Source of the DNA: Pseudomonadales bacterium
GTDB lineage: Bacteria > Patescibacteriota > Microgenomatia > UBA1400 > PJMF01
DNA: 64,000 nt
Reading direction: 5' to 3'
NCBI GenBank assembly: GCA_020632265.1
Contig: JACKFW010000001.1
Coordinates: forward strand, 337,892-401,891
A program made the position numbers and the translations under genes. Below the pieces are notes generated by a model that was not told the DNA's origin, ran no database searches, and saw nothing but the letters and a program-made list of their open reading frames with translations. Below, piece after piece: positions 24,033 through 41,045 of the stretch. Position 1 is the stretch's first letter. Each line of letters begins with the position of its first letter.

Positions 24033-25253
24033 TTAAACAGAAGGCTTATTCTTAAATTTAATAATGGTCTTTTTTCTTAAGTTTTTTGCAACTGACAAGC
24101 TATCATCGGGAGATTTCACATAAAACAAAGCAAATGGTTTCTGCGCATTCGGAGGAGCAATATATTTATCACCAGGTTTTATATAATGTGTTTCTGAAAT
24201 AATATATTTACTTTTTGGAATTGAAAACTTTTCAACTTTTCCCGATTCACTTTCCCAAACTTCACATGCGGTGCAACTACTACTCTCCTTGATATTATCT
24301 GAAATTCTCATATCTAGTGCCAACTCCCAACTCAGCTTATTCATATCAATATTATAAGCATTTCTCATAATTACATCTCTAAACCCACCCATTCTAACAT
24401 TCACTTCAATTAAGAAAATGTGTTTGCCAATTACAAAAAATTCTGGGTGTAGAAGTGTCGATTTTAATCCAGAAGCATCAACCAAAGTTTGCATCACAAA
24501 TGTTATTTTTTGACGAATATTTTCACTGTGCCTAGATGGAGTGGTGCGATAAATTAACTGCATATGATTCTGCTTTACTTCTCTAGCAGTAATTACATCC
24601 ACTAAAGCCAAAACCCTTACCTTGCCAATTTTATCCACATACATTACGGGAGCAACTTGTTTACCATAGAGATACTGCTCAATCAAGACAAGGTCCTTGT
24701 CAGGATTTTCTATATATTTTAATAAAATCTCTTTGGCGACCTCAAATCCTTTGGCATTTTTTAATGTTACAACTCCTCTACTTTTTGCTCCAAGATGAGT
24801 TTTCAAAACAATGGGAAATTGAAGTTGATCAAAATATGTAGAAACTTCATTAAGTGTAGTAATAATAGTTCTTGGTCGAAAAAACGACAATTCACTCTGA
24901 ATCATTAACTCATGCATTCGAGTTTTATCTGCCAAATCTTGAACTGAAGACGCGGTTGGACCTGGAACGTTAAAGGTTTCACAAAGTTGACCATGAAGAA
25001 CTTCAAAATAATCTGTGCGGTTAACTACTCCTTTTACTGTCAATTTATTTTTGATTGAATAAGAAACAATTTTTGAAAGAGTATTCTTCAAAGAAGAGGC
25101 AAAATATATTGCATTTTCAGGCAATAGTGTTTTAGGGACCTTATATTTATCAATAACCAATAATCTGGCTTCTGGATCATCAGCTTTTAAATAAGATGCA
25201 TAATCTGATATATATTTAGAACTTCCAAGAACTATGACGACAGGAATTCTCAT
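24033..25253 (-). CDS. ATP-grasp domain protein
   Basis: 406-aa ORF. The central region has ATP-grasp features (VLKTHLGAKSRGV..., E.N-type motif FLIEVNVRMGG). Confidence 0.55.
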   Translation of the reverse strand: MRIPVVIVLGSSKYISDYASYLKADDPEARLLVIDKYKVPKTLLPENAIYFASSLKNTLSKIVSYSIKNKLTVKGVVNRTDYFEVLHGQLCETFNVPGPTASSVQDLADKTRMHELMIQSELSFFRPRTIITTLNEVSTYFDQLQFPIVLKTHLGAKSRGVVTLKNAKGFEVAKEILLKYIENPDKDLVLIEQYLYGKQVAPVMYVDKIGKVRVLALVDVITAREVKQNHMQLIYRTTPSRHSENIRQKITFVMQTLVDASGLKSTLLHPEFFVIGKHIFLIEVNVRMGGFRDVIMRNAYNIDMNKLSWELALDMRISDNIKESSSCTACEVWESESGKVEKFSIPKSKYIISETHYIKPGDKYIAPPNAQKPFALFYVKSPDDSLSVAKNLRKKTIIKFKNKPSV

Positions 25254-25582
25254 ATGTTTAAAAATATTTTAAGTAGACTGAATTCTATACTTTTATTGCT
25301 AAAAGTAAATAAGGATAATGATCAATAAATCGAGTGATCATTAAAATAAATAGGCGAGTTGTGAAATTCTAATTCCATACTTCATGCCAACAATAAAGGC
25401 TATTAGTGGCAAAGTAATAAAAAGTACTGCCGCGAGCAATTTTGAAAAAGGCGTAACGGAAGTTAGTGAATTTGGAATTGTCGAACTTTTCTTTTTTTTC
25501 ATATAAAAAATTATATCAGTAATTTCCCAAGCAACTCAAGCTTCAAAATTATGAAGAAGATAAGGTTTTACTAAGTGCTAAA

Positions 25583-25692
25583 TTAATCGCTATTGTTGCT
25601 TATCCTGCCAAAATCGCTTCCCGGTCAGTACAATCGCTGCCTGGCCAATGCAATCATTATCTAGAAATTACAATCGCGACCTGGCCACGACC
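25583..25692. repeat. five tandem ~20-bp direct repeats (AATCGCNNCCTGGCCANNNC)
   Basis: aaatcgcttcccggtcagtac / aatcgctgcctggccaatgc / aatcattatctagaaattac / aatcgcgacctggccacgacc. The last copy encodes the C-terminus of the methyltransferase. The repeats are GC-rich relative to flanking DNA. Confidence 0.7.
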
Positions 25693-26495
25693 AATATATC
25701 CGTAGCTCCAAACAACTTTAGAGATATAAAATCAAACCAATGAAAAATTGGAACTAATGGTCCTTTAATTAATTTGATTAAAAACCCAATTTTGGTAGTG
25801 AAAAGCAAATTTCGTAAAGGTCCCTCAACACTTTTAATTTCTAAAACTTCGAAACCATTTCTAGTCAATAATTCTTTTATTTTAGCTTCTGAATATCTTC
25901 TTAAATGACCAACTTCTTTATCAAACTTATTAAAAAAACCTAGTCGATAAAGCCAATTATTTTTGGAAGGTGTAGTTAAATAAAGTAACCCATGATCAAT
26001 TAGCTGGCTTCTAATTTCATTTAAAAATTTACTTTCATTTTCAATGTGTTCAATTACCTCGGTAACAATAACTAAACCAAATTTACCTTGTCCTTTTTTT
26101 AATAATTTTTTTTCAAAAGTAACATTTTTTAATCCAAGTTGTTTCTTAGCATTTTTACAAATATCTATTGCTCGTTGAGAAACGTCTATCCCCCTAACAT
26201 TTGCTCCCAAAGAAGCAAAATATAAAGCTAAGGTACCTACGCCGCATCCAACATCCAAAATTTTTAATTTTGAAAAATCAAATTTTTTCTCTTTCAATTT
26301 TGATTCAATTAAAAATTTATTAATTATTTCTTTATAAAAAAATCTTAATATTTCATAATATGTAAAATTATTTTTACCAATGACTTTATAAAAATTTTGG
26401 TTTTTTTTATGATATTTATCGTAAAAATCTTGTTTTTTAATCATAGTAAAATAATTGTCGTTTGGTTTGAAAACAAAATTAATTTTAACAACCAA
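25668..26495 (-). CDS. class I SAM-dependent methyltransferase
   Basis: SAM-binding motif I (ILDVGCGVGTLA) and motif II (LVIVTEVIEH). Confidence 0.75.
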   Translation of the reverse strand: MVVKINFVFKPNDNYFTMIKKQDFYDKYHKKNQNFYKVIGKNNFTYYEILRFFYKEIINKFLIESKLKEKKFDFSKLKILDVGCGVGTLALYFASLGANVRGIDVSQRAIDICKNAKKQLGLKNVTFEKKLLKKGQGKFGLVIVTEVIEHIENESKFLNEIRSQLIDHGLLYLTTPSKNNWLYRLGFFNKFDKEVGHLRRYSEAKIKELLTRNGFEVLEIKSVEGPLRNLLFTTKIGFLIKLIKGPLVPIFHWFDFISLKLFGATDILVVARSRL

Positions 26496-26637
26496 TTTCG
26501 AATTATTGAATAATAGTTAATACATAGATAAATATATCAAATATTTAAATAAAGCGTTTCTGCAACTTATATCACTTAATCCTGATATAATGAATCAATT
26601 ATATTTTATCTTTATATCAACCTAAGAAACTCAAATT

Positions 26638-27108
26638 ATGAAAAACTTTAATAATTCAAATAAATTCGGACGCTCAAGAGGTGGTTATAATTCAGAAGAT
26701 AGAGGCTCTAGTCGACCTCATTTCGGCTCAGGAAGTGCTGGCAGAAATCAAATGCACGATGCAGTATGCGCGGATTGTGGTGGTAATTGTAAAGTTCCTT
26801 TCATGCCTAGTTCAGGCAAGCCAGTTTATTGTAGCAACTGTTTTGAAAAAAGAGGCAATGGTGACCACTCAGCAAGAAAATCAAGTTTTTCAAGCAAAAG
26901 TTTTACAAGCAAAAGTTTTACACCAGCACACAACAAGACTCAAGAAAATTTTAGTAAACAATTTGAATTAATCAATACTAAGCTAGATAAAATTATTAGA
27001 CATTTAAATTTAGAAGAAGTAGCTAAAACGACTAAAACTCAGGAAATCTTTACAATGATTGGCAAGAAAGTTGCTAAAGCAAAAACAAAAAAAGAATCTA
27101 TTGTCTAA
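26638..27108 (+). CDS. small RG-rich protein with CxxC-x17-CxxC zinc ribbon
   Basis: N-terminal GRSRGGYNSEDRGSSRP low-complexity region, then CADCGGNCKVPFMPSSGKPVYCSNCF, then a Ser/Lys-rich tail. Confidence 0.5.
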   Translation: MKNFNNSNKFGRSRGGYNSEDRGSSRPHFGSGSAGRNQMHDAVCADCGGNCKVPFMPSSGKPVYCSNCFEKRGNGDHSARKSSFSSKSFTSKSFTPAHNKTQENFSKQFELINTKLDKIIRHLNLEEVAKTTKTQEIFTMIGKKVAKAKTKKESIV

Positions 27109-27214
27109 ATTTTTTAGCAAGAATCTTTTTTAATCATGGACAAATTTGTTTATGAAGCATTGAGTTCTTTTTGAAATATTTGTTGTATATTTATCTACAT
27201 GCTACAATCTAAAA

Positions 27215-29158
27215 ATGAGTCAATTTAAGGCTTCACTATTAAAATTATCTCCAATTAAATATCTACTTTTTATTGCAACAATTGTCTATTTTTCTCTCGC
27301 TGTTTTGACTTATCATCCAGATAATAAACAAGTATTATTTTGGGCCAGCATTGATGGAACAAAACTAGTTGATGTATGGAAAGTTGGCACAGAAAAATAT
27401 CCAAACATCAGTCAATTTAATTATCCACCAGCACATTATCTTGTTGATAAATTATTGTATTTTATTGCTAAACCCATCGCTGGACCAGGGTATGATGAAT
27501 GGTTGAGTTCACCGAATGATCATGACCGCTTTCAACTTCAAATAACTAAATTTACTCTTGCTACAAAAACCGGCCTAATTTTCTTAGGAATTTTCTCTGG
27601 ATACCTTGTCTACTTGGTTGTTGCTCAATTAAACAACAAAAAGCAAGCACTTATAGCAACCTCACTTTGGCTTTTTAATCCAATTACTCTATACAGCATT
27701 CCGATGATGGGACAAAATGATATAATTGCGATCTGCTTTTTCTTAATGGGTTGGCTTTCATTGAGAAATAATAAATTTTTAGCTACAATATTATTTGGGA
27801 TTAGCGCTTCAATAAAAATGATTCCACTAATTTGGGTTCCATTTTTATTAGCGAGTAACTCAAGAATTAATTGGAAACAAAAATTTATAATTTTTTCTGG
27901 CTCTGGATTAATATATATCGCAACATTAATTCCATTTTTAAACAATGAAAATTTTCAAAAATCTATTCTTACTGGCAATCATAGCCAGCGATTTTTATAC
28001 TCGCAAATATCGTTTGGCTTCTCAGAAGGAATTTATATAATTCCAATTTTATTAATGATAATTCTAGCGGGAATATTTGTACATATAACAAAAAGTTCTA
28101 AAAAACTATCGTTACCATCTTTTGCACTAATGGTTGTCAACATGACTATGCTGAGTTTCACTCACTTTCATCCTCAGTGGTGGATTTGGGTAGTATTATT
28201 TTGGGCAATGTGGATGACAACAATTGATGCAAAGCGTATTGGCGGAGCAATAGTTTTGAGCTTTATTAGTTTTTGTTGTTGGCTTTCAATAGTGGTTTTA
28301 TTCAAAGATATTGCTTTAAGCTTTGCAATGTTATTACCTTTAAATTCCAATTTGGCAAATCTCCCAACTATCAATAGCTACTTAGTTGCCAGAGGCACTG
28401 ATGTAGAGCAACTTGTAAAATTAGCGTATTCATGGTTAGCAGGAATTTCGATCATTTCAATTGGGCTATTTTTTAAATCGCAGTTACCCACAATTCATAA
28501 AAGAATTGTTATTTCAACATACATAAATAAATTACTCAATAAAATATTTTCAAATGGAGTACTCAGAAAAACTACAATCATATCATTAATCGGATTTTTA
28601 TTTGTGAGTTTTACACTTGTTTCTCAAATAATTCCCGCTCCTATAGCGAGCAAACCTCCCAACAGCATTAGATATGAGCCATTAACTTCTAATTATGAGA
28701 TTACTTTCAGCCCTGAATTTAGTAATTTAGAAAGGTTTGATTTATATCTATCTGACAAAACTCTAAAGGGAACTGGGAATTATTTAATTCAGACGAAAAT
28801 TGGCGAAGAGGAAATATTTCAGCAAGTTATTCAAGGAGAAAATATTGGGTTTGAATCCATAATACGTTTTGATCTTCCAAATCCGATTGATCATCATGTT
28901 GATAATTACACCGTACGCATTGCTCCTCTAGAATATTTAGAAAATGGATCAAATATCATTCAAGAGAACGAGAATACAATTATGGTAGGAATCATAAACC
29001 CAGAAAATCCATATCAATCTTTGGCAATTCGTCCATATTTTTCTGCACCCAATATCAAATCCATTTTACCAAGAACCTACATATCTATAAAAAATATTAT
29101 TAACCAAACATTACCTCTATTTGTATTAATCGGATTGGGAATAGTTATTTTCGGATAA
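27215..29158 (+). CDS. large polytopic membrane protein (GT-C-like/DUF2029-like glycosyltransferase?) with C-terminal extracytoplasmic domain
   Basis: 647-aa ORF. About 12 TM helices in the N-terminal 420 aa, then a soluble domain and a final TM helix. Confidence 0.4.
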   Translation: MSQFKASLLKLSPIKYLLFIATIVYFSLAVLTYHPDNKQVLFWASIDGTKLVDVWKVGTEKYPNISQFNYPPAHYLVDKLLYFIAKPIAGPGYDEWLSSPNDHDRFQLQITKFTLATKTGLIFLGIFSGYLVYLVVAQLNNKKQALIATSLWLFNPITLYSIPMMGQNDIIAICFFLMGWLSLRNNKFLATILFGISASIKMIPLIWVPFLLASNSRINWKQKFIIFSGSGLIYIATLIPFLNNENFQKSILTGNHSQRFLYSQISFGFSEGIYIIPILLMIILAGIFVHITKSSKKLSLPSFALMVVNMTMLSFTHFHPQWWIWVVLFWAMWMTTIDAKRIGGAIVLSFISFCCWLSIVVLFKDIALSFAMLLPLNSNLANLPTINSYLVARGTDVEQLVKLAYSWLAGISIISIGLFFKSQLPTIHKRIVISTYINKLLNKIFSNGVLRKTTIISLIGFLFVSFTLVSQIIPAPIASKPPNSIRYEPLTSNYEITFSPEFSNLERFDLYLSDKTLKGTGNYLIQTKIGEEEIFQQVIQGENIGFESIIRFDLPNPIDHHVDNYTVRIAPLEYLENGSNIIQENENTIMVGIINPENPYQSLAIRPYFSAPNIKSILPRTYISIKNIINQTLPLFVLIGLGIVIFG

Positions 29159-29183
29159 AACATATCAACCAACTGATAATCAA

Positions 29184-30236
29184 TTAAGATTTTTGCTTTA
29201 ATTCTGGAAACATTAAAAACAAAAATTCTCTAGCTGCGTGTCTATTTTTTCCCTCGTATGGAAAATCGTGAATATCAAATCCAGGTGTATCGTTTATTTC
29301 AATAATTATATATGAGTTTTTAGTTTGCTTTTTTGTAATGTCAGTTGATAAAAAATCAATGCCAGCAAATGATAGTCCTGGAACTGCATTTATAGCATTT
29401 AGCGCAATATCTTTTACGCTTTGGTGCACTTTATCTGTAAAATCAATTGCATCTCCGCCTTGAGATACATTTGAAAGTCTACGTAAAAAAATTCTTTTTC
29501 CTTTTGGTGGAATTGAACTAAAATCCATAGCATTTTTTTGTAAGAGCCTAAGCATGCGGTCGTCCATTCTAATTTTTAAATGAGAAGTTGTGCCACTTTT
29601 TAAAGCTCTGATAGGATCTTGATTCTTCTTTTTTATTAATTCTTTAATAGAATCTAGGCCATTACCCAAAATACTAGCTGGTCGTCTAAATAAAACTCCA
29701 ATAACTTTTTCCCTTGTCGCTAAAATTCTATACTCAGTTCCTTTAAACATCTCTTCGACAATCACTGAAGCTTTTTGCTTTCCAGAATATTCTATTGCAT
29801 AATCAACCGCGTCTAAATACTCATCAAAATCAACGATGTTTAATGTAATATTTTCTCCCAAAGCACCATCACTAGGCTTAACCACTAAAGGTTTTTGTAA
29901 ATTCTCATAGACAGACAATAAAAATTTATCTGAACTAGAATTTCTAACCCTATATCCTTTTGGAACGGAGATGCCATTATTATATAAAAGATTTGTTGTA
30001 ACTTTTTTATTATTACATGCATACTTTGCTAAAGCTGAAGTTGTTGAAGGAACTTGATGATAAAAAGTCCGTTTTTTTCCTTTAAATGAAAGCTCAATTA
30101 TTTGTGTACAAGAAATAATATTCCAATCAACACCAAATTTTTCTGCTTCTTTCAGAACAAGCCTAGAACTATTAGAAATATTTTTATTTTTTATAATTCC
30201 TTTGGGACTATAAAATTCATAAATCAACTGCGACAT
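29184..30236 (-). CDS. ATP-grasp enzyme (RimK/glutathione-synthetase-like ligase)
   Basis: Motifs VVKPSDGALGENIT, IVEEMFKGTEYRIL and IIEINDTPGF. Confidence 0.6.
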   Translation of the reverse strand: MSQLIYEFYSPKGIIKNKNISNSSRLVLKEAEKFGVDWNIISCTQIIELSFKGKKRTFYHQVPSTTSALAKYACNNKKVTTNLLYNNGISVPKGYRVRNSSSDKFLLSVYENLQKPLVVKPSDGALGENITLNIVDFDEYLDAVDYAIEYSGKQKASVIVEEMFKGTEYRILATREKVIGVLFRRPASILGNGLDSIKELIKKKNQDPIRALKSGTTSHLKIRMDDRMLRLLQKNAMDFSSIPPKGKRIFLRRLSNVSQGGDAIDFTDKVHQSVKDIALNAINAVPGLSFAGIDFLSTDITKKQTKNSYIIIEINDTPGFDIHDFPYEGKNRHAAREFLFLMFPELKQKS

Positions 30237-31470: not shown

Positions 31471-32166
31471 CTACTCAACAGATTCTAAATTTGCTAACAC
31501 CAATAATCGGCGCCAAGTTGTTCCAGGAGGAGTACAAGTCATCAAAATCAAATCAGCATCTGGATTATTTTCAAGAAATGAAACCGCTTCTGGAGATACC
31601 TCTTTGGTTTGGGTCACTTTATAGATATAGGGCGCGCCTTTATAGTAAATCTTAATCTCATCACCAGCTTCCATTTTGTTTAGTAAATAAAAAATTGAGT
31701 TATAGCGGCGCGCCATCGTAATGTCGCCACTAGCATGAGCAAACAAAAACATCGTTTTTTCTTGTCCTGGCAAACCTGTGCCTGCAGCCTGAGCAACGCC
31801 TTTTGCTAATTCGCGCTGATAAATATTGGCGTCAAATGGATCTACTTTTGCCACAATTGGAGCATTTGCATCTATTTTAGAAATTACGATACCAAAATTA
31901 GTATCAACAGGCTCAATTTCTTTTTGCTCAACTGTTTTACTGTTAAAAAAATATTGAATTTGTTTTGGCGCATCGCCTTGAACAATGGCATTAAATAACT
32001 CTGGCGAATATTTTTCTGTAAATTTTTTAATTTGAATTGGAACAGTATTCTTTACAAAATAGCTTGTTTCGGAAAATATTATTGGTCCGTAAGAATATGA
32101 AAGAGTGCTCAAGCCGAACAACAATAGACCAAAGCCTATTGTTGTTGTAACTAATTTCGTTTTCAT
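31471..32166 (-). CDS. sortase (class with TLxTC-type active site)
   Basis: N-terminal TM helix, a His region (FAHASG) and the catalytic LILMTCTP motif. Its ATG overlaps the stop of the LPXTG giant gene (ATGA at 32166). Confidence 0.8.
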   Translation of the reverse strand: MKTKLVTTTIGFGLLLFGLSTLSYSYGPIIFSETSYFVKNTVPIQIKKFTEKYSPELFNAIVQGDAPKQIQYFFNSKTVEQKEIEPVDTNFGIVISKIDANAPIVAKVDPFDANIYQRELAKGVAQAAGTGLPGQEKTMFLFAHASGDITMARRYNSIFYLLNKMEAGDEIKIYYKGAPYIYKVTQTKEVSPEAVSFLENNPDADLILMTCTPPGTTWRRLLVLANLESVE

Positions 32167-35100
32167 TATTTACGCTTAGAAAAAAAGATGAAATAGATAA
32201 TAGTTAAAATACCAAAACCTAAAAGTAATGGTAAGCCGAAACGACCAAGAGTAGACCAAAGTTTATCAGTTTCAATACCCAATACTTTTCCATCTGCATT
32301 GACATCTACCTCATTAGTTTCTCCACTTTCTCCTGTTTCACCAGCGACCTCACCGTTGGCATCTTCTCCTACCTCGCCTGTTTCAGTTTCTCCTGCGATT
32401 TCACCTGCTGTGCCACCACCAGCTACGAAAGATTCTCCGACTGGAATTGCACCGAGAGCAACTTGCTGAGTTTCGCCCGTAGTAGAATTTGTGAAAACAA
32501 CTGTTATATCTTCATCCCCAACTAAATCTGAAGCATTATTGTTATCATCAAAAGCTCTGATAGCATAATAATAATCTTTGCCACAATCAGATTTTGTATT
32601 GTTAAATGTGTAATCTTGATTTGGACCAATGGCAATTGTATCTACGCGTGAACCCGCATCAGCTGTGAAATATGTATTGTTATCACTACGATAAATTTCA
32701 ACTCTACTAGTTTGCCCATCATCGGCGGTTTTGAATTTAATCTCATACTCACAATTGTTCTTGGCTGATTTATTATAATTCCTTGGTTTATCTGGGCCAT
32801 CATTGTCGAGACCAACTCTAACCTCACTGCTATTTATGTCGGTGCCATCGCCAGCAATCACAACCCTGAAGTCATAATTACTGTTGACATCAAGGTTTTG
32901 GGCATCGCAGTAACCAGAATTACCACCGGGCTTGACAACGTAATTTGTGGTGATATTAGTCCAAGCGCCATCATTTTTCTGTTGCTGACACTGGGCTGTT
33001 ACTGACAAATTGTCGGTGTTTAAAACCACGAAGTCTACTTTCATGTCTCTTTTATTGGTCGTAGCATCCTGACCATACTCAGTAATACTGTTGTATGGTT
33101 CTTCAACTCTGACCGAAGTGAAAGCTTGAGCTGGTTTGGCAAAATATAGTGATGCGCCAACCATTAATAATAGTAATAGAGTTTTACCAAATGATTTATT
33201 ACCAGATTTGTGCAAGCGTTTACCAAATAACAGTATCAATGCGCCAACTAAGGTACTAAGTAATGCAAGGATGTTAATCCAAGCATTTGCGCCAGTGGCT
33301 GGAAGCTGAGTACTTGCTCCAAGTACTTCACCTTCTTTCTCTTCAGTACGATCAATGTCGTAGTTTTTGGCAGGAGTTTGATCAACTACAACTGCAATCT
33401 GAGTGCCGGCAAAATGTTCTTCACCATAGTGACCTTCAGTTCCTTCTTCTGAAATTGCGGTTAAATCAGCATCTGTACCTCCAACTGCATCCTCTTGAGC
33501 ACTAGTTCCTGTTGCCCAAGCCATATCTGGGTAAACTCCTGGATCGGTTGAATTATCAATCTTGGTTTTGTAAGTCAGAGTAACAACTTCATCTTTTACA
33601 AGATTACCTAGTTGCCAAACACCTGGAGAAGCATAGGTTGGCTCAGTGGTTGTACCACCTTTCAAATCACCACGTTCGGTAGACTCAGCTGTATAGCTGT
33701 CAGGAACATATTCAAACTGTTCTGGTGGAAGATCAAAGACCTGTGCACCTAAAACTGGACCACCTACAGCAGTTACTTTAATTGTATATTCAACTTCACT
33801 TCCTGGCTGTTGGTTGTCAGGCGAATCAATGCTGGATTTTTCAATACGAAAACCACTTTCAATGAAGTTACCAAAGTTGGCTGTTTCAGTTTCACCAGAT
33901 TGGTCAATCACAACTTCGTGGCAAAGTTCACCATCAGGTTCTATTGATTGCCAACCCCAGTTGGTTCGGTCTTCTTCACAAACTGTGTATGTTCCCTTTG
34001 TTAAATCAGTAAAAGAATAAGCACCATTTTCATCTGTATTTACTTTTTGCTCTTCAATATCATTTCCAGAAAGACTAATGCCCCAATACTGCATTTTTGA
34101 TTCTCCTTCATCATATTGACCATTCTGATTTTCATCAAAATACTTGATGCCCTCAATATTTCCTGGTCGATAATTACCAACGTAACAAGTAGTAGCTTGA
34201 CCAGGTTGAACTTCAACAAGACGACTATTTGGTCTAACAACATCCAGAATTTCTTGTGCAAAGGCAACTGATACTCCTAAGATTTTATCCAACAAACTTG
34301 ATGAATCTGATTGTTGTGCATCAGGTGAAGGAGTTGGTGAAACAGAATTATTAGCACAAACAATGTCAGTTACACCCATAACCGGACACCAATTGCCCCA
34401 TCCCATTTGAACATCCCCTTGTCTATTAAATAAATTACAGCTTTGAAATTCAGTACAAGGACGTGCTTGGCCATAAGAAACTAAAGAATCATATCCATTA
34501 ACTTCACAAGCCCATAGAGCACAAGTTGCTGCATCTCCACAGCCATTCCAACCTTCACAATTACCATGGTGGCCATATGCTTCTCCTTGAGAAGTAATCA
34601 TAACGCCTTCTATATTAGAGTCACAACTAATTGCTGACTGCTCCCATCCTTTTTGAAGTTCTTCAGACAAGCTGTATGTCCCTCCCAGCACACTAAAATT
34701 AGTCATTCCACCCAACCCAGTTGTTTGAATCAAATCAGCCATTTCATTTTTACCCAAAACCATATTCCATTCTGGTAAAAATGGCTCACCTACATCATGA
34801 ATACCATTAGTATTTAGATCTTCATATTTATACACGTTAATATCACCATATTGAGTATTGCCAAAATTATATTCTGGTCCAGTCACCGCATTTTTACTAA
34901 CAGCTAAACGTTGTAGATTTTGATCAGGTAGTGTTACACTATGACATACTGGATCAATAGGATAGGTTTGTACCCAACCGTCTTGTGACACCTCACAAAT
35001 TTGGTAAGTTCCAGCAGTTAAACCTTCAAACCAATACCAGCCAAAATGATCTTCTTCGTTGGAGGTTGTGGTTTTTGGTTCACCATCATCCCATTGTTGA

Positions 35101-38100
35101 TTACTATTTTGATCAATAAAGATCTCCCAATCAGGTAATAGTTTTTCATCACCTCTTACACCATCTCTATCTTGATCATCCCATTTATATCCATGAATAT
35201 CATAAGTTTGAACATTACCAAAACTGATTGATTGGGAAGAACCGTCTTGATCTAGAGTAACTGCTTTGCAAACCTCGGCATCAGATGACCCTGGATCAGT
35301 GTTTGCCCAACCAGATTGATTGACTTCACAAACTTGGTAATTTCCAGGAGACAGTGAAATGAAATCATAAGCTCCTTCAACATCTGTAGTATCTAAACCA
35401 AGTAACTGTTGCTTATTTTCGTTATAGAGCTTAATTGTCCAACCCTCAAGACCTACTTCACCACTAGTCCAATCACCACTCATGTTGCTGTCTAAATATT
35501 TTTGACCATAGATATTTCCCAAGTGTTGATTAGTGATAGTAATTTCCGGAACCTTATCCCCAACTGTAAATGTAGCAGGGTAATAGGTAACTACATCGCT
35601 AGCAACCGTTGTCGATTGATAATACCAACCTTCTTTTGGTACCTCAAAGACTTGATAATCTCCAAATGGCACATCATCGAATGTTATGCAACCACTTTCG
35701 TCAGTTTGATCTGAGTCTATTACTGCACCGATTTGCGCTCTAAAATCACCAGTGTTTACATTATCACCATAGTTATCGTCAAATATCGAAAGATTTAAAT
35801 TACCTCCAGAAAATCCAGTTACTAAAGTGCTGTAAAGATGAGAAGGGTTATAACCACCCCAGTTGATATTCTGACCAGCAACTTTTAACTCAAGTGCTCC
35901 GGGAATACTTAACAAGTCGCCATTGATCCAACCATCCAAGTAAGGAGGAATGCTTTGGTAACGATATGAGTACCCAGCATCAGCGCCTTCGCTATCACCA
36001 CGATACTTGTAGTAGCCCGAACTGTAAACGACATAGTCTCCATCTGCAAGCGAAACATCAATACCAGTACCAATAGTAACAGGTATCTGTTCATCAAAAC
36101 CAGTTGGCTGACTTAATCCAACGGTCCAACCTGCCTGTGGTTGGCCATTTTGATCTTGTTTGCAGACTGTGACGTCGTTAACAAGCGGATAATTGCCAAA
36201 ACGGAAGTTTCGGACTTCTTCTCCAGAAGAAACGGTAACATCGCGACAAATCAGGTCGTTATTTTTGTATCCTGTGGCATAATCAAGATCGCTGCTTCCC
36301 CAATTATCTTGAAGTGTTTCGCAGACTGAATAAGCACCTGGTTTCAAATTTTTAAAGGTAGTCCAGCCATTAGGACCGGTTATTTGTGGACCAGCCACTT
36401 GATTTCCTTGATCATCGAGTAAAACAAATGCCCAACCTTGAAGGCCTGGTTCTGGATCAGCACCAAAATTGATCTTGCCATCGTGATTTCTGTCTTCATA
36501 TTTATTAACTAATATTTTTCCAAGCTGATAATTAGCAAAGCGGAAGTTGTTAACTGTTTCTCCTGAATCAACGCTAACAGTTCGACAAATTTCACCAGCG
36601 CCATTTTGAGTAGCATTGGCTTGTTCTAGATCACTACTCGACCAATCGGATTGAGGTACCTCACAAACCGAGTAGTCTCCAGGAATAACATCTTTAAAAG
36701 TAGTCCATCCGTTTGGTCCTGTAGTTTGGGGACCAGCCACTAATTGCTCATTTGAGTCATACAGTTTGAACGACCAACCTTGTAGACCTGGTTCATCTGA
36801 AGTTTTTTTACCGTTTGCATTAAGGTCTTCGAATTTGTTGACTAAAATTTTGCCTGAAACTGGCAGTTCGGCATTAAATGCTACGCAGTAGTAACTACCA
36901 CCGGGCTGTGCATTACTAATGCTCTCGTAGTTATCATACTTATAGTGATCATCATTGCAGTAGAATTCGGCGCTCACATTACTGCCTGGGCTAGCATCTG
37001 GGGGGTAGGTAAAGGGAATGAATCCTTTTTGTAATACTTCTCTGAACCACAGGGTTTTGTTGTCTGGATTTGGTATTATGGCAGCCGCTGGACTTGCTTC
37101 AAATGTTTTAACATTAAATTCAGTCCAAGGAGCTCCGGCATATCCAATATACTCACCACTTTGTTTGGGTGCGGAGCCATCGTAACCCCACTCGAAGTCC
37201 CAATCAGAAGCTAACCGACATCGACCATTACTCTGGTCTACGTAGTCTTGAGCGGTTGTAGCGGTTACCTGCCCACCCGCATCATCGCCCCAGTTGGGGA
37301 GATCTGATTCAGATTGACACACAACTTTATGTGCGTAGACCGATACTAATTGTGATCCGTCACAACTCACACTCACATCATCAAGGAACATACCCAATGA
37401 ATCAGGGATTCCTAGTTCAACAAAGCTGATTGTTGTTAGATCTGCAGTAGCAATAAACGAATAAGTTTCGGTTTTCCATTGAGTAGTAGCTCCTCCAGCC
37501 ATAACTCCACTGTCAAATACCTCAATGCCACCTACAGTAACTTGCAAATGATTGCCAACATAATTTGGCCTTGGAGAATAGCTCCAAGTTACTGTGTATT
37601 TATTTCCAGGAATGGTAGGAATACCCTGTGAAAGTGAGATAGATGCTGGCTCTCCACTATAGTTATCATTAGGTCCACCCCAATCAGTGTCTAATTCAAC
37701 GTACTGCTGACCTTCTGAGGCTAATCCCAAAACACCTCTGTGAAGTTCAATTTTGGGCTCAGGTCGATCATGACCGCCCCAAGTTTCAGGTATGTTGTAC
37801 CAACTGGCCGTCCAGCCAGGAACTTGAGCACTCTCAAAAATATCCCATTTTGCACTAGTGGTAACTACCGGAATTTCAAAACTGCCATCAGTAACCATTT
37901 CTGGTCGGCATTCATTGACCCAAGTACATTCGGTTGAACAACTGCCTTGGCCATTATCTGCTATGCCATAATCGCAAGATTCATTATTGTTCACTATGCC
38001 ATCACCACAACTAAGTGAGGGTGTTGGGGTTGGGGTTGGTGTTGGAGAAGGAGATGGTTCGGGAACATTGCAGTCATTATTCCAAATAGCCTGTCCTTCG

Positions 38101-41045
38101 ATAGTCCAATTTTTGCCAGGGTATGTACAAATACCAGAATCACAGAAGTAGTAGAACGGTGGAATAATGTCGCCCCACGGATCTTCAGGATATACCCCTC
38201 CGTTATGATCATCGTGACCTTGGACATCAGCGCTTTTACTCGGATTTATACTGTTGTATGGATTTACATGGGCATTAGTAGAATGACAAATAGTCACCCT
38301 TTCGCAATCAGTGTCGTTGGTGTTAGCAAGTCCAGGAGAGATGCAACTAACAACGAAGTCGCCGCTGTTGTCGTTGGTGTCTTGGCCGTCAGGGAAGCGA
38401 GAGAGACCCAAGCTCTGATTCGAACTATCGTCAGTGCCGGCATTTGTGCCTTCGGTATATCCAGGTGTGTCTCCTTCATAACTAACAGTATCAATTAGAA
38501 TTGCCGCTGGTTCTGACCCAAAAAAGAGCGCTACTGCATCGGGACCTCCGTTTTGGATTAAGTCAGTGCTTGGAGAAACTTCCAAATCGCAATTAGGAAC
38601 ATTGGCACTGTCTCCACAGACCACATAATAATCGCCTGCACCGAGATCAACGTCGGGAAGATCTATTGTATGGTAATTGAGTGGTGGAACCACGCCTCCA
38701 TTGATTAGGCGTAACTCAAATCCATCAAGGTTGGCTGATGCTTCGCCGGTGTTTTTGAGCTCGATAAATTCAGCATGATCTGTGCTCTGTTGATCGTAGT
38801 CAATTTCGTTGATTTTTAGTAAAACTGTTTGAGTGGTTGTGCTAGTGATTTCCTCACTCACTGACTCAGGAGAGCCGTGAGAAACTGCTCGGAAGTAGTA
38901 CTCAGTTACAGAACTCAACCCAAAAACTGTCACATTATGATTAGTTACCAAGGTTGAGTCTTCTGTCGTAGAGTATGCGTAACCATAATTTGATGCAGTT
39001 CCCAAGGATGAGTGGGAGACGGTGTCATAAATCACACGACTTGTGGCAGGATGATCGGTTGTCCAAGTGATTGTCACTGAATCCTCAGTGGGATTAGTGG
39101 CACTTTCGGTAGTAATTACTGGACCGATAATGCTCTCAGCTGTTCCAGCGTAATATGGATAGCCATCATTGATGGCAGGGTCGATGGCCCAAATGTTGTC
39201 AAAATCCCAGCCCGCATCAGTAAAGGTGGATTCTGCCTTCATTTCTGCGGTTGTTTTGCTGATTCTGCCCACACCATTTGCGTTGGTTTTGCCCGAAGTT
39301 TCTCTATCCCAAAAATTGGGTGCATCGTTACTATATGATCCCCAATCTTTCCCAATAAATCCTTTGCAATATTCTTGACTACAAGCAACTGTGCCTGTAG
39401 AGTAAGAATATCTAGTCGATCCGTTATCAAATCCAGCAAGTCCTCCAGAATTATTCGTGCCTGTCACATTTCCTCTCGCGTAAGAGTTGCTAATTGTTCC
39501 TGCATACATGTATCCAACCAGTCCTCCAGAAGTTCCACTTGATGAGCTCACTGTGGCAGTAGAGCTTGATTTACTAATTGAAGAATAATCGGATTGTCCA
39601 ACCAAACCTCCAACGTAGCCACCACTCCATCCCTCCATATCAGAATAAACAGTAGCATTAACCACCCCACTTGTTTGACAGTTTCTAATAGTGGCATTGT
39701 CTATCTGTCCCACCAGTCCTCCAACTTCGTATCGCCCGGTGATATTGACATTAAACAGTTTAATGTTGGCTAACTCTGCTCCTGTACCGACATACCCAAA
39801 CAATCCCTGCCAATCGGCGGAGTTATCAAACATGTCAACAGGAGAACGGTTGATATAGAGATTGGTTATTGAATAGTTATTTCCATCTAAAGAGCCCGTA
39901 AACTTACTTGTGCTATTTCCAATGGGTACAAATCCCTTTCCGCCGTTCCAGCTTGAGGTTGCGGAACAATCAATATCGTTCATTACGGAATAAACTCCAG
40001 AGAGATTATCTTTGACGGCCTGTAATTCATCACAAGTAGTAATTTGGGTTATGGGCTTTGCAACACCACCAATCACGATAAAGGTGGTGAAGTGATCTAA
40101 GCCAGAAACAGTTACCTGGTCATCCTGAACTTTTTGCTCTATATTTATTTCTCCTACTTTATCCTTAACTAAATTGATATCATCTTCGTTTATTTTGTCT
40201 TTTGATTCTGTCAAGGGCTTTTCTATATAAACCACTTCTGCTTCAGAATTTTCTGCCTTTGGTAATGTCACATCATACTTAAATGTCCCATCAGCCATAT
40301 CAGTTGTAATGTCATATGCATACTCAGCGTCAGTTACTACCGAATTTGGCAAGTTCAAATCACTGACCAAGACTCGCTCAATTCTCAAACCAGAACGCTG
40401 ACTCAGTTCTTTTGGTAAACACGAAAAGGTAACACTGACTTTGTTATCCAATGGGAATTCATAAACAACTCCTGACCTAACGTCCATAGTAGTTTCAGCT
40501 ACGCCATTCTGAGAATCAACTTCCCAAAGAGTTTCGCCAGCAGTCAGACCAACTTCATCAATATTTACACATTCTTGCTCAACCAATTCAGGATTCACTT
40601 CAGCATCACCAAAAACCACCTTACCATCAACTAATTGAAATGATTGATTAAATGAACTACCAATACTTAAATTACCACGAGAAAAATTAGCTGGGATACA
40701 ATCCTCACCAGAACAAGTACCAACATAGACTTCAGCACCAAAAACACCTGGCTCAACTTCAGCTAATTTTCCCTCAGCTGCCTGAGTTACTTCTGGATCT
40801 TGACTTTTATCAACATAGGAAAGGGTGTAAAAAAGCTCCTGATCAGTATTTACAAATAAATCGAATGAATGACTAGACGCATTAAATGCCAAATTAACAT
40901 CAGCGACACTAACACTAGCCTCAGCCTGCGCCACCGCCGGGTTGGTCATTAAAACTGGCAATGCCGCAAAGGGTTGAAAAACTAGGAAAAGAGCTTGAAA
41001 CGAACTGAATAATTTGATAAAAAAACTACGAAAGCGTTTGTTCAT
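32166..41045 (-). CDS. giant (2959 aa) cell-surface adhesin-like protein with internal LPATG sorting signal
   Basis: Signal peptide, then a lamin-tail-like domain, an FN3-like domain, at least 6 SdrD-B/Cna-B-like repeats (G.ILVNKYED.N.DG...GLQGW...TTG.NGW..F..L.PG.Y.VCE), a DUF11-like domain, and LPATG with a TM helix and a KRLHK tail at ~33285. The frame continues in-frame for 318 aa more, with a second signal-like segment and a terminal TM helix plus KRK. Confidence 0.85.
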   Translation of the reverse strand: MNKRFRSFFIKLFSSFQALFLVFQPFAALPVLMTNPAVAQAEASVSVADVNLAFNASSHSFDLFVNTDQELFYTLSYVDKSQDPEVTQAAEGKLAEVEPGVFGAEVYVGTCSGEDCIPANFSRGNLSIGSSFNQSFQLVDGKVVFGDAEVNPELVEQECVNIDEVGLTAGETLWEVDSQNGVAETTMDVRSGVVYEFPLDNKVSVTFSCLPKELSQRSGLRIERVLVSDLNLPNSVVTDAEYAYDITTDMADGTFKYDVTLPKAENSEAEVVYIEKPLTESKDKINEDDINLVKDKVGEINIEQKVQDDQVTVSGLDHFTTFIVIGGVAKPITQITTCDELQAVKDNLSGVYSVMNDIDCSATSSWNGGKGFVPIGNSTSKFTGSLDGNNYSITNLYINRSPVDMFDNSADWQGLFGYVGTGAELANIKLFNVNITGRYEVGGLVGQIDNATIRNCQTSGVVNATVYSDMEGWSGGYVGGLVGQSDYSSISKSSSTATVSSSSGTSGGLVGYMYAGTISNSYARGNVTGTNNSGGLAGFDNGSTRYSYSTGTVACSQEYCKGFIGKDWGSYSNDAPNFWDRETSGKTNANGVGRISKTTAEMKAESTFTDAGWDFDNIWAIDPAINDGYPYYAGTAESIIGPVITTESATNPTEDSVTITWTTDHPATSRVIYDTVSHSSLGTASNYGYAYSTTEDSTLVTNHNVTVFGLSSVTEYYFRAVSHGSPESVSEEITSTTTQTVLLKINEIDYDQQSTDHAEFIELKNTGEASANLDGFELRLINGGVVPPLNYHTIDLPDVDLGAGDYYVVCGDSANVPNCDLEVSPSTDLIQNGGPDAVALFFGSEPAAILIDTVSYEGDTPGYTEGTNAGTDDSSNQSLGLSRFPDGQDTNDNSGDFVVSCISPGLANTNDTDCERVTICHSTNAHVNPYNSINPSKSADVQGHDDHNGGVYPEDPWGDIIPPFYYFCDSGICTYPGKNWTIEGQAIWNNDCNVPEPSPSPTPTPTPTPSLSCGDGIVNNNESCDYGIADNGQGSCSTECTWVNECRPEMVTDGSFEIPVVTTSAKWDIFESAQVPGWTASWYNIPETWGGHDRPEPKIELHRGVLGLASEGQQYVELDTDWGGPNDNYSGEPASISLSQGIPTIPGNKYTVTWSYSPRPNYVGNHLQVTVGGIEVFDSGVMAGGATTQWKTETYSFIATADLTTISFVELGIPDSLGMFLDDVSVSCDGSQLVSVYAHKVVCQSESDLPNWGDDAGGQVTATTAQDYVDQSNGRCRLASDWDFEWGYDGSAPKQSGEYIGYAGAPWTEFNVKTFEASPAAAIIPNPDNKTLWFREVLQKGFIPFTYPPDASPGSNVSAEFYCNDDHYKYDNYESISNAQPGGSYYCVAFNAELPVSGKILVNKFEDLNANGKKTSDEPGLQGWSFKLYDSNEQLVAGPQTTGPNGWTTFKDVIPGDYSVCEVPQSDWSSSDLEQANATQNGAGEICRTVSVDSGETVNNFRFANYQLGKILVNKYEDRNHDGKINFGADPEPGLQGWAFVLLDDQGNQVAGPQITGPNGWTTFKNLKPGAYSVCETLQDNWGSSDLDYATGYKNNDLICRDVTVSSGEEVRNFRFGNYPLVNDVTVCKQDQNGQPQAGWTVGLSQPTGFDEQIPVTIGTGIDVSLADGDYVVYSSGYYKYRGDSEGADAGYSYRYQSIPPYLDGWINGDLLSIPGALELKVAGQNINWGGYNPSHLYSTLVTGFSGGNLNLSIFDDNYGDNVNTGDFRAQIGAVIDSDQTDESGCITFDDVPFGDYQVFEVPKEGWYYQSTTVASDVVTYYPATFTVGDKVPEITITNQHLGNIYGQKYLDSNMSGDWTSGEVGLEGWTIKLYNENKQQLLGLDTTDVEGAYDFISLSPGNYQVCEVNQSGWANTDPGSSDAEVCKAVTLDQDGSSQSISFGNVQTYDIHGYKWDDQDRDGVRGDEKLLPDWEIFIDQNSNQQWDDGEPKTTTSNEEDHFGWYWFEGLTAGTYQICEVSQDGWVQTYPIDPVCHSVTLPDQNLQRLAVSKNAVTGPEYNFGNTQYGDINVYKYEDLNTNGIHDVGEPFLPEWNMVLGKNEMADLIQTTGLGGMTNFSVLGGTYSLSEELQKGWEQSAISCDSNIEGVMITSQGEAYGHHGNCEGWNGCGDAATCALWACEVNGYDSLVSYGQARPCTEFQSCNLFNRQGDVQMGWGNWCPVMGVTDIVCANNSVSPTPSPDAQQSDSSSLLDKILGVSVAFAQEILDVVRPNSRLVEVQPGQATTCYVGNYRPGNIEGIKYFDENQNGQYDEGESKMQYWGISLSGNDIEEQKVNTDENGAYSFTDLTKGTYTVCEEDRTNWGWQSIEPDGELCHEVVIDQSGETETANFGNFIESGFRIEKSSIDSPDNQQPGSEVEYTIKVTAVGGPVLGAQVFDLPPEQFEYVPDSYTAESTERGDLKGGTTTEPTYASPGVWQLGNLVKDEVVTLTYKTKIDNSTDPGVYPDMAWATGTSAQEDAVGGTDADLTAISEEGTEGHYGEEHFAGTQIAVVVDQTPAKNYDIDRTEEKEGEVLGASTQLPATGANAWINILALLSTLVGALILLFGKRLHKSGNKSFGKTLLLLLMVGASLYFAKPAQAFTSVRVEEPYNSITEYGQDATTNKRDMKVDFVVLNTDNLSVTAQCQQQKNDGAWTNITTNYVVKPGGNSGYCDAQNLDVNSNYDFRVVIAGDGTDINSSEVRVGLDNDGPDKPRNYNKSAKNNCEYEIKFKTADDGQTSRVEIYRSDNNTYFTADAGSRVDTIAIGPNQDYTFNNTKSDCGKDYYYAIRAFDDNNNASDLVGDEDITVVFTNSTTGETQQVALGAIPVGESFVAGGGTAGEIAGETETGEVGEDANGEVAGETGESGETNEVDVNADGKVLGIETDKLWSTLGRFGLPLLLGFGILTIIYFIFFSKRK

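Follow-up and report, generated by a model that had tools for sequence, protein, structure and literature searches.

An internal sortase sorting signal in a giant Patescibacteria adhesin, probably the result of recurrent in-frame fusion of neighbouring cassette genes

Canonical sortase sorting signals are located at the C-terminus of their substrates (Schneewind & Missiakas, PMC3297441), and sortase is near-ubiquitous in the Microgenomates (PMC6744442). In the literature on internal LPXTG motifs, sorting-signal polyproteins and sortase in CPR, Patescibacteria and Microgenomates we found no earlier description of the architecture reported here, and the fused design is apparently undescribed so far. 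An internal sorting signal engineered into the Seb-Cws-BlaZ reporters of the Schneewind laboratory is reportedly cleaved, with release of the C-terminal fragment by sortase, while the part downstream of the signal is said to remain in the cytoplasm. The structural polyprotein of flaviviruses is built from alternating stop-transfer and internal signal sequences, and is cut by the host signal peptidase.

The locus lies in a stretch of 64 kb (the window, to which all coordinates refer), which comes from a tiny, probably symbiotic bacterium of the Patescibacteria/CPR type. All the features described are on the minus strand. The fused ORF (32166..41045, 2959 aa plus stop) encodes a giant adhesin, an internal sorting signal, a second signal peptide and a tail protein, and has Pfam matches to SdrD_B, SpaA, LTD, Glug and CarboxypepD_reg. 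Its start, MNKRFRS, is followed by a hydrophobic peak at aa 8-34 and by AQA/E (the slash marks the cleavage site), which by a rule-based reading of the sequence constitutes an N-terminal Sec-type signal peptide (40923..41045, aa 1-41, ending PAVAQA/EA). A Kyte-Doolittle profile of the whole protein shows strong hydrophobic segments at four places only, namely the N-terminal signal peptide, the last helix and the pair at the junction, together with one weaker segment within a domain. The last folded domain of the adhesin (33351..33860, aa 2396-2565) is modelled as a beta-sandwich with AF2 pLDDT of 80-96; it closes with a conserved DLAWA...FVGT.V segment, and its homologues carry PF01345 (DUF11/CLIPPER). 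In the AF2 model this domain is followed by a disordered region with the LPATG, two helices separated by a five-residue break, two FN3 domains, a disordered linker and the last helix. An Rfam scan of the window gave no match.

The sorting signal begins with the conserved pre-motif VLGASTQ and LPATG (33291..33326, aa 2574-2585), of which LPATG itself occupies aa 2581-2585 (nt 33305-33291), that is, about 2581 aa into the ORF and not the ~2690 aa given in the preliminary description. It continues with the 23 hydrophobic residues ANAWINILALLSTLVGALILLFG (33222..33290, aa 2586-2608, Kyte-Doolittle peak 2.77), which form helix 193-217 in the AF2 model and are predicted to cross the membrane from outside to inside, and with the basic cluster KR..K, completing the motif of an LPXTG sortase substrate. 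L186, P187, T189 and G190 are invariant in A3. When the junction segment was scanned alone, it scored 18.2 bits with TIGR01167 (LPXTG_anchor, cut-off 15.9) and 18.9 bits with PF00746, just below the cut-off of 20. The signal is not C-terminal, since 351 residues come after G2608, the end of the hydrophobic segment, and these include a second exported protein.

The basic loop KRLHKSGNKSFGK (33183..33221, aa 2609-2621, net charge +5) is predicted to be cytoplasmic, and in the topology derived from hydropathy, charge and the AF2 helices it would have two roles, closing the sorting signal with its positive charges and supplying the n-region for the second signal peptide. The h- and c-regions of the latter, TLLLLLMVGASLYFAKPAQA, span 33123..33182 (aa 2622-2641, Kyte-Doolittle peak 2.14) and correspond to AF2 helix 223-239. 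With KRLHKSGNKSFGK as n-region, TLLLLLMVGASLYF as h-region and the ending AKPAQA/F, this segment has the tripartite organisation of a Sec (type I) signal peptide, with a predicted signal peptidase I site at AQA/F. It begins at residue 2609 of 2959, and only the split homologues described below have the equivalent peptide at their N-terminus. The elements reported in the preliminary description, namely an in-frame LPATG, a hydrophobic stretch, a basic loop, a signal-peptide-like segment with AxA, a 318-aa tail and a last helix with KRK, are thus all present.

The tail comprises exactly 318 aa (F2642-K2959), in which a folded part rich in Asn, Asp and Thr precedes a 63-aa spacer rich in Gly, Glu and Thr, and a hydrophobic helix with SKRK behind it closes the chain. 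Its ectodomain (32517..33122, about aa 2642-2843) is modelled as two tandem fibronectin-III-like beta-sandwiches (AF2 pLDDT 80-97), and the best Foldseek matches in the PDB are tandem FN3 pairs, with E ~1e-7. The Gly/Glu/Thr-rich linker (32268..32507, aa 2847-2926), taken as disordered from its composition and from pLDDT values below 50, contains the motif VLGIET, and [VI]LG is found in 76 of 80 tails. The C-terminal membrane anchor (32169..32267) consists of hydrophobic residues 2935-2955 and the final SKRK, corresponding to AF2 helix 532-561; it has no LPxTG, nor any match to the LPXTG-anchor models. Proteins built in this way, in which a signal peptide leads into two FN3-like domains, a disordered linker and an anchor in the membrane at the C-terminus, form a family of 538 clusters at E<=1e-30; as marks of membership we took a full-length profile match, four invariant cysteines (C66, C93, C145 and C201, in 80 sequences) and a gene position with the LPxTG adhesin on one side and the sortase on the other. 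The window tail has all of these features, matching the family profile with E 2e-109 over positions 3-316. No Pfam or NCBIfam model for the family was found when the window tail and 24 members were scanned, the only hits being three weak matches to Big_3_2.

The sortase gene (31471..32166, 231 aa) lies directly downstream and would be the cognate sortase of this LPXTG substrate. The preliminary description had placed it there correctly, although the overlap is not ATGA: the start codon shares 1 nt with the stop of the fused ORF, in TAATG. The protein has an N-terminal membrane helix and the catalytic His (FAHASGD), Cys (LMTC) and Arg (WRRLLV) of the superfamily, and matches PF04203 (E 7e-21, 74.7 bits) and TIGR01076 (44 bits, cut-off 39.35). 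None of the curated sortase classes reaches its cut-off; the nearest model is that of class C, the pilus type (NF033745, 63.9 against 160), and classes D, E, F and GN also remain below.

In a census of 87 loci, the adhesin and the tail are two genes in 41 (split) and a single stop-free ORF in 40 (fused), with sortase immediately downstream in 82 of the 87 and the order in Patescibacteria always being LPxTG adhesin, tail, sortase. In the split loci the tail homologues are separate genes of ~320 aa that lie directly 3' of the LPxTG adhesin gene, and each has a Met and a signal peptide of its own. All 41 pairs overlap or are separated by at most 5 nt, the stop is TAA in 39, and in 24 the genes share an 8-nt overlap, ATGnnTAA; a one-base indel is therefore sufficient to fuse or split them. 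Because tail homologues occur as separate genes in these 41 loci, the window ORF was historically two genes in one frame, which bears out the earlier proposal of a two-gene fusion. The alternative offered with it, a precursor split by sortase into a wall-linked adhesin and a membrane-anchored product, is supported alongside it by the equal conservation of the LPxTG and the signal-peptidase site, the cleavage itself being putative. A stop codon between the anchor and the next segment in related genomes had been named as the finding that would refute a continuous frame; the outcome is mixed and follows lineage, with a stop in about half of the relatives and none in the others, which argues that the split and fused states are interchangeable. 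On a neighbour-joining tree of the tail domain (296 columns, midpoint root) there are at least five switches between the two states, their number and direction being approximate. One entry, L001, holds an inverted segment at its 5' end and is of limited use for upstream comparison.

All 40 fused loci share the junction pattern of an LPxTG, 20-30 hydrophobic residues, a net-positive loop (4-35 aa, median 7, net charge +2 to +13) and a second hydrophobic run ending in AxA. At the signal-peptidase site, 39 of 40 fused and 39 of 40 split tails (78/80 family members) have Ala at -1, and the -3 residue is small in both. Among 200 family proteins retrieved from public gene calls, 117 have the junction architecture, and this recurrence, together with that in 40 independent loci, excludes chance. 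The nearest relatives of the window (48-60% identity) are fused, with a stop-free junction. In the window's own clade the loop measures 13, 11, 8, 7 or 6 aa and the frame is always kept; as the lengths vary and yet stay in frame, the frame appears to be held by selection.

An alternative genetic code was considered and discarded, given that the fused ORFs are without any stops and that the stops in the split loci are almost all TAA. A separate internal start for the tail was also rejected. The window offers only a TTG (in KRL) and a Met within the h-region; Met is retained in just 11 of the 40 fused loops, and the loops of L002 and L007 have no start-type codon, so that an internal start is no conserved feature. 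Such a start would, moreover, leave synthesis of the fused chain unhindered. The window loop also contains an out-of-frame TAA TAA, a suggestive candidate for the fossil of an old overlapping stop, to which we give no weight because in a genome of 33% GC it is uninformative.

Judging from these sequences, the fused layout is a real design and no error, shared by about half of the related species. We consider it likely that the ORF is a genuine, recurrent in-frame fusion of neighbouring cassette genes, in which a junction hairpin is cut twice to give the same products as in the split loci. From sequence, conservation, the distribution of split and fused loci, fold predictions and gene context we infer a topology, two cleavages and a fate for the products. 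The junction would fold into a membrane hairpin of two helices, in which the sorting signal's hydrophobic part would pass from outside to inside, the short basic loop would stay in the cytoplasm and serve both targeting signals, and the second hydrophobic segment would return outwards to end in AxA. Sortase would cut at LPAT/G (T2584/G2585) and move the adhesin onto an envelope acceptor, while signal peptidase I would cut at AQA/F and release the tail from the hairpin; the tail's own C-terminal helix would keep it membrane-bound. What remains would be a hairpin peptide of ~57 aa, and the products would equal those of the split loci, at a fixed 1:1 ratio. The dual processing of the fused protein is suggested by the LPxTG and the signal-peptidase site being equally conserved in the fused and split forms.

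A missed stop, an assembly error or a fresh frameshift confined to this genome is hardly credible. Split relatives exist, a single-base indel would be enough for fusion, and the near-identical Logan contig L087, an independent assembly, has three single-base indels elsewhere; yet its loop is identical and without a stop, the stop-free junction recurs in 40 loci from different species and in 117 public gene calls, the nearest relatives stay in frame despite differing loop lengths, and the LPATG and AxA motifs are both intact in the window. It also seems improbable that the internal LPATG remains uncleaved, which would leave a whole, three-pass membrane protein whose giant and FN3 ectodomains would both be fastened by hairpin and last helix, and a sortase serving other substrates. 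Such an arrangement would agree with the known sorting signals being C-terminal (PMC3297441) and with the processing of a natural internal signal being undocumented, and one protein, P0167, has lost the LP of the motif and kept the hairpin, which indicates that the hairpin alone is tolerable. A plain hairpin, however, requires neither motif, whereas LPxTG is found in all 40 fused loci and, among 122 long family proteins, in 117, with MPxTG or FPxTG variants in four of the other five, and AxA is as conserved as in the split genes. Furthermore, the window contains a single LPxTG signal and a single sortase, and the frequent switching to the split state, where canonical cleavage is expected, argues that the outcomes are equivalent.

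The tail might itself be the acceptor, sortase linking the Thr of the adhesin LPAT to the membrane-anchored FN3 protein either through a lysine or through its new N-terminal amine. In that case the FN3 protein would be a membrane-embedded basal subunit, and for fused genes the net effect would be to cut out the hairpin and rejoin its flanks. We find this unlikely for the acceptor role as such, and slightly less likely still for the full sequence in which sortase and signal peptidase excise the hairpin and sortase ligates the LPAT Thr to the new N-terminus or a lysine of the tail. The adhesin, tail and sortase genes are strictly linked in 82 of 87 loci and translationally coupled, the repeated fusion implies a 1:1 functional partnership, and the hairpin model places LPATG and AQA/F both at the outer face of the membrane, few residues from the helix ends. 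The mature tail mostly starts with Ala, Gly or Ser, but in the window with Phe. The lysine of P..Y.K, a motif located between the FN3 domains, is present in 76 of 80 sequences, but it is replaced by R in two and V in two, L064 has no nearby K, and the residue lies within an ordinary FN3 start motif; these four exceptions weaken the idea of a conserved acceptor lysine. The pilus-type class C is the closest sortase model, but at a score far under its cut-off, and the YPKN pilin motif is absent from the tail. Finally, none of the 200 family proteins has the adhesin joined straight to the FN3 domains without the hairpin, which would be the genetic equivalent of the ligated product. Fusion followed by two separate cuts thus remains our preferred reading.

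The textbook C-terminal rule for sortase signals is relaxed by a large natural family with an internal signal, an arrangement seen in 117 of the 200 proteins and in about half of all species representatives. If the cleavage is true, the rule falls, and programs restricted to C-terminal LPXTG motifs will overlook many sortase substrates of Patescibacteria. The analysis also defines an undescribed three-gene module of adhesin, FN3 membrane protein and sortase, whose repeated fusion is an argument for adhesin and FN3 protein acting together 1:1. Patescibacteria are a radiation thought to live attached to other cells, and the module gives a concrete handle on how they display giant adhesins. If ligation is true, it would be a natural sortase-driven protein-protein ligation that anchors giant adhesins in the membrane via a dedicated stalk protein, and in the fused genes an enzymatic protein splicing of a membrane hairpin. 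The locus is also a clean natural case of gene fusion across a membrane, with one basic loop and two targeting signals; the fusion owes its topological neutrality solely to the hairpin that arises when an anchor signal at the end of one protein meets a signal peptide at the start of the next, and the shared-loop design may help to engineer co-secreted protein pairs.

Compared with canonical LPXTG substrates, such as S. aureus protein A and its sortase SrtA (PF00746, TIGR01167; PMC3297441), the adhesin is alike in its N-terminal signal peptide, LPATG, ~23 hydrophobic residues, basic cluster and adjacent sortase gene, and the isolated segment passes TIGR01167. It differs in that the signal lies ~375 residues from the C-terminus, the charged tail runs into a second signal peptide and exported protein, the sortase cannot be assigned to any curated class and the organism belongs to the Patescibacteria. 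Sortase pili with a basal pilin (SpaA/SpaB, BcpA/BcpB; YPKN lysine nucleophile; PMC3297441) likewise have a dedicated sortase encoded with its substrates, and they resemble this system in the SpaA, SdrD_B and CnaB-type stalk domains of the adhesin, the second, small Ig/FN3-like protein alongside and class C as the closest sortase. In contrast, the tail has neither LPxTG nor YPKN, it is anchored by a membrane helix of its own, the sortase falls well short of the class C threshold, and there is no sign of polymerisation. As in the Seb-Cws-BlaZ reporters, a sorting signal is followed by more polypeptide, but here the arrangement is natural and conserved, and the downstream part would be re-exported via the second signal peptide. 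With flavivirus-type polyproteins the locus would share a single chain threaded back and forth across the membrane, from which peptidases at the membrane face yield separate ectodomain proteins; here the system is bacterial and chromosomal, and one of the cuts would be a sortase transpeptidation and not a hydrolysis. The closeness of the two genes, with an ATGnnTAA overlap in split lineages and one ORF in others, is that of the 'Rosetta stone' fusion and fission of coupled genes and implies that their products are functional partners, with the difference that the fusion point lies across the membrane.

The fused ORF of the window (32166-41045, minus strand) translates to 2959 aa and carries LPATG at aa 2581-2585 (nt 33305-33291, minus strand), followed in the same frame by the junction segments ANAWINILALLSTLVGALILLFG (aa 2586-2608), KRLHKSGNKSFGK (aa 2609-2621) and TLLLLLMVGASLYFAKPAQA (aa 2622-2641), and by a tail, F2642-K2959, that is exactly 318 aa long. 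Scanned for hydropathy over its full length, the protein is strongly hydrophobic at four places only: the N-terminal signal peptide, the first and third of these junction segments, and the last helix (aa 2935-2955), behind which comes SKRK. The next ORF (31471-32166, minus strand) matches the sortase model PF04203 (E 7e-21), and its ATG shares one base with the stop of the fused ORF (TAATG). The feature is real, and the preliminary description of an LPATG signal, a second signal-peptide-like segment, a 318-aa tail and a final helix next to a sortase gene is accurate apart from small corrections: LPATG lies about 2581 aa into the ORF, not about 2690, and the overlap is TAATG, not ATGA.

The tail query matched 24 proteins. 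The closest two (P0002 and P0003, ~60% identity) begin inside or at the LPATG signal, so the frame is continuous in both as well, and the distant matches (30-40% identity) are stand-alone proteins of 310-340 aa. Inspection of three distant contexts revealed a common gene order of large adhesin-type protein, tail gene and sortase. The upstream protein is of SpaA/SdrD_B/CLIPPER type, and at its end VLGxSTxLPxTG is followed by a hydrophobic stretch and then a basic tail. Between its gene and the tail gene there is either an 8-nt overlap (ATGAATAA, ATGCGTAA) or a 3-nt gap.

Scanning one genome per species gave 80 loci. Wherever a lineage can be read from the record title, it is patescibacterial (Microgenomates groups, Paceibacterota, WWE3 and others). 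We sorted 87 loci by stop-to-stop translation and a tail profile; six were uninformative (three at contig edges, two without an upstream LPxTG, one with a truncated tail match). To the question of one ORF or two in orthologues both answers apply: a stop, which had been taken to speak against a single precursor, separates LPxTG from the tail in 41 of the 87 loci and is absent from 40. The split genes overlap or lie within 5 nt of each other in 41/41 cases, with an exact 8-nt overlap in 24 and TAA as the stop codon in 39, and the sortase lies 3' in 82/87 loci. The state tracks lineage, as given by record titles: Roizmanbacteria, Shapirobacteria, WWE3 and Paceibacterota are mostly fused, and Daviesbacteria, Gottesmanbacteria, Collierbacteria and Levybacteria mostly split. 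A neighbour-joining tree of the tail domain has at least five state changes, an approximate count. The window cassette is a case of a widespread, unnamed three-gene module of Patescibacteria. The missed stop suspected around the junction was ruled out by this census and by an independent Logan contig of nearly identical DNA, in which the same loop sequence is also free of stops.

At the protein level, a profile search of 1.84 billion cluster representatives gave 538 family members at E<=1e-30; among the best 150 of these, about 92, counted from listed lengths, are long and have the tail at their very C-terminal end. In a tally of 200 family proteins, 117 are fused with LPxTG, four are fused with an MPxTG or FPxTG variant, 77 stand alone and one has an N-terminally truncated tail match. 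In the remaining one, P0167, also fused, the LP of the sortase motif is lost (VLGAATG-TNTTW...) and the hairpin is kept. Complete examples are annotated at NCBI; one of them, P0174 from WWE3, is 763 aa long and has a signal peptide at its N-terminus. Fused family members appear in public annotations as DUF11, TIGR01451 repeat, hypothetical or 'RHS repeat' proteins, and neither Pfam nor NCBIfam has a model for the tail.

A single junction plan is common to all 40 fused loci. After LPxTG (LPATG in 30/40) come 20-30 hydrophobic residues and then a loop, which is 4-35 aa long (median 7) and carries a net charge of +2 to +13. The second hydrophobic run, behind the loop, has a small-x-small site at its end. 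In the window clade the loop measures 13, 11, 8, 7 or 6 aa, with the frame kept every time, and Met is retained in 11/40 loops. In the shortest loops (RLKK, RKKK, KKGK, KMKK) the single basic cluster has to play two parts, as the charged end of the sorting signal and as the n-region of the signal peptide that follows. The predicted signal-peptidase site has Ala at -1 in 39/40 fused loci and 39/40 split tails, and V, A, S or T at -3 in nearly all tails. Together with the conservation of LPxTG, this indicates that both cleavage motifs are under the same constraint, fused or split; a plain two-helix tether would need neither. A [VI]LG-x-x-T motif also occurs 3-7 residues before LPxTG in essentially all adhesins (VLGAST; window 33306-33326, minus strand; loci L003-L086); 76/80 tails have one or two copies in the disordered linker (VLGIET, ILGEEAT; window 32295-32312, minus strand). 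This suggests a common recognition or modification element, or a tail C-terminus derived from a degenerate sorting signal.

In an AF2 model built from the tail alignment, a signal-peptide helix precedes two beta-sandwich domains predicted with confidence; a stretch of ~80 aa after them is disordered, and the C-terminus is again helical. Foldseek matched the tail model to tandem fibronectin-III (FN3) pairs in the PDB (E about 1e-7). The last 564 aa, modelled with AF2 from an alignment of 33 fused homologues (mean pLDDT 75, pTM 0.61), start with a confident beta-sandwich, the last adhesin domain, whose homologues carry PF01345 (DUF11/CLIPPER), an isopeptide-bond stalk domain (PMC12617251). A disordered segment containing VLGASTQLPATG, helices 193-217 and 223-239 with a five-residue break, two FN3 domains, the linker and the last helix follow. 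This predicted model fits a hairpin whose two cleavage sites both lie on the outer face.

We regard the window protein as a predicted sortase substrate whose sorting signal is internal and which is fused to its partner from the cassette. On the most economical reading, fusing or splitting the genes is topologically neutral. The hairpin would comprise an outside-to-inside anchor helix and then an inside-to-outside signal peptide; sortase would cut LPATG between T and G, and signal peptidase I would cut between AQA and F. The products would be the same two mature proteins as from split loci, in a 1:1 ratio that split loci would approximate through translational coupling. We infer the topology, both cleavages and wall attachment from sequence, conservation, distribution and predicted folds. 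Recurrent fusion implies that the adhesin and the FN3 membrane protein would act together as functional partners. A bolder version, in which the tail itself is the sortase acceptor, is kept as a rival because the evidence points to it weakly: just one lysine is well conserved (76/80), not without exceptions, and it belongs to an ordinary start motif of FN3 domains, direct adhesin-FN3 fusions lacking the hairpin are absent from the 200 family proteins, and the sortase scores below every class cut-off.

Many cassette-bearing MAG records (L008-L011, L013, L018 and others) bear the title 'uncultured Gammaproteobacteria' or 'Pseudomonadales', a taxonomy that is probably wrong or a placeholder. The Logan contig L087 (run SRR12358678) is identical to window 32240-33340 except for two substitutions and three single-base indels, one of which cuts the called gene short. 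The same organism is probably present in the run, along with assembly errors. At the 5' end of another Logan contig (L001:4-207) the opposite strand encodes a homologue of giant-protein aa 2375-2442, an inversion or chimeric assembly just upstream of the LPATG region. In L002, a JGI contig from a close relative, the tail linker has two in-frame TAA codons: that at 819-821 aligns with a Gln of the close relative P0170, and that at 915-917 lies within repeats (TEGTEA*GTEAG) absent from P0170. The two codons, past which homology continues, could reflect a pseudogene, a sequencing error or a strain variant. Locus L006 has a second sortase (2-1061), after a cut 160-aa ORF, directly 5' of its cassette, so tandem cassettes may exist.

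No Rfam family, and so no model for a tRNA, rRNA or riboswitch, matches at gathering score anywhere in the window (1-64000), whose GC content is 33.4%. In its N-terminal part (38400-40100, minus strand; aa ~340-860) the adhesin contains an M26-peptidase N-terminal-like region, GLUG motifs, a purple-acid-phosphatase N-terminal-like FN3 domain and a lamin-tail domain, and aa 1052-1226 give a weak 'choice-of-anchor C' match. An adjoining cluster (24033-30236) of two ATP-grasp enzymes, a class I methyltransferase and a GT87-like glycosyltransferase may have a role in envelope modification. A DUF2207 membrane protein, encoded ~10 kb from the cassette (19785-21863, minus strand) and directly 3' of the sortase in locus L005 (11466-13274), may be loosely associated with it.

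Sortases are near-ubiquitous in Microgenomates (PMC6744442). In the literature we found no description of an internal LPXTG, the adhesin-tail-sortase cassette or the tail family. Sortase can reportedly cut a signal with further polypeptide behind it in engineered Seb-Cws-BlaZ reporters. Scanned alone, the internal signal passes TIGR01167, but canonical sorting signals are C-terminal (PMC3297441), unlike that of the window protein. What a sortase specialist would not expect is the frequency of the internal signal, together with the dual-use loop.
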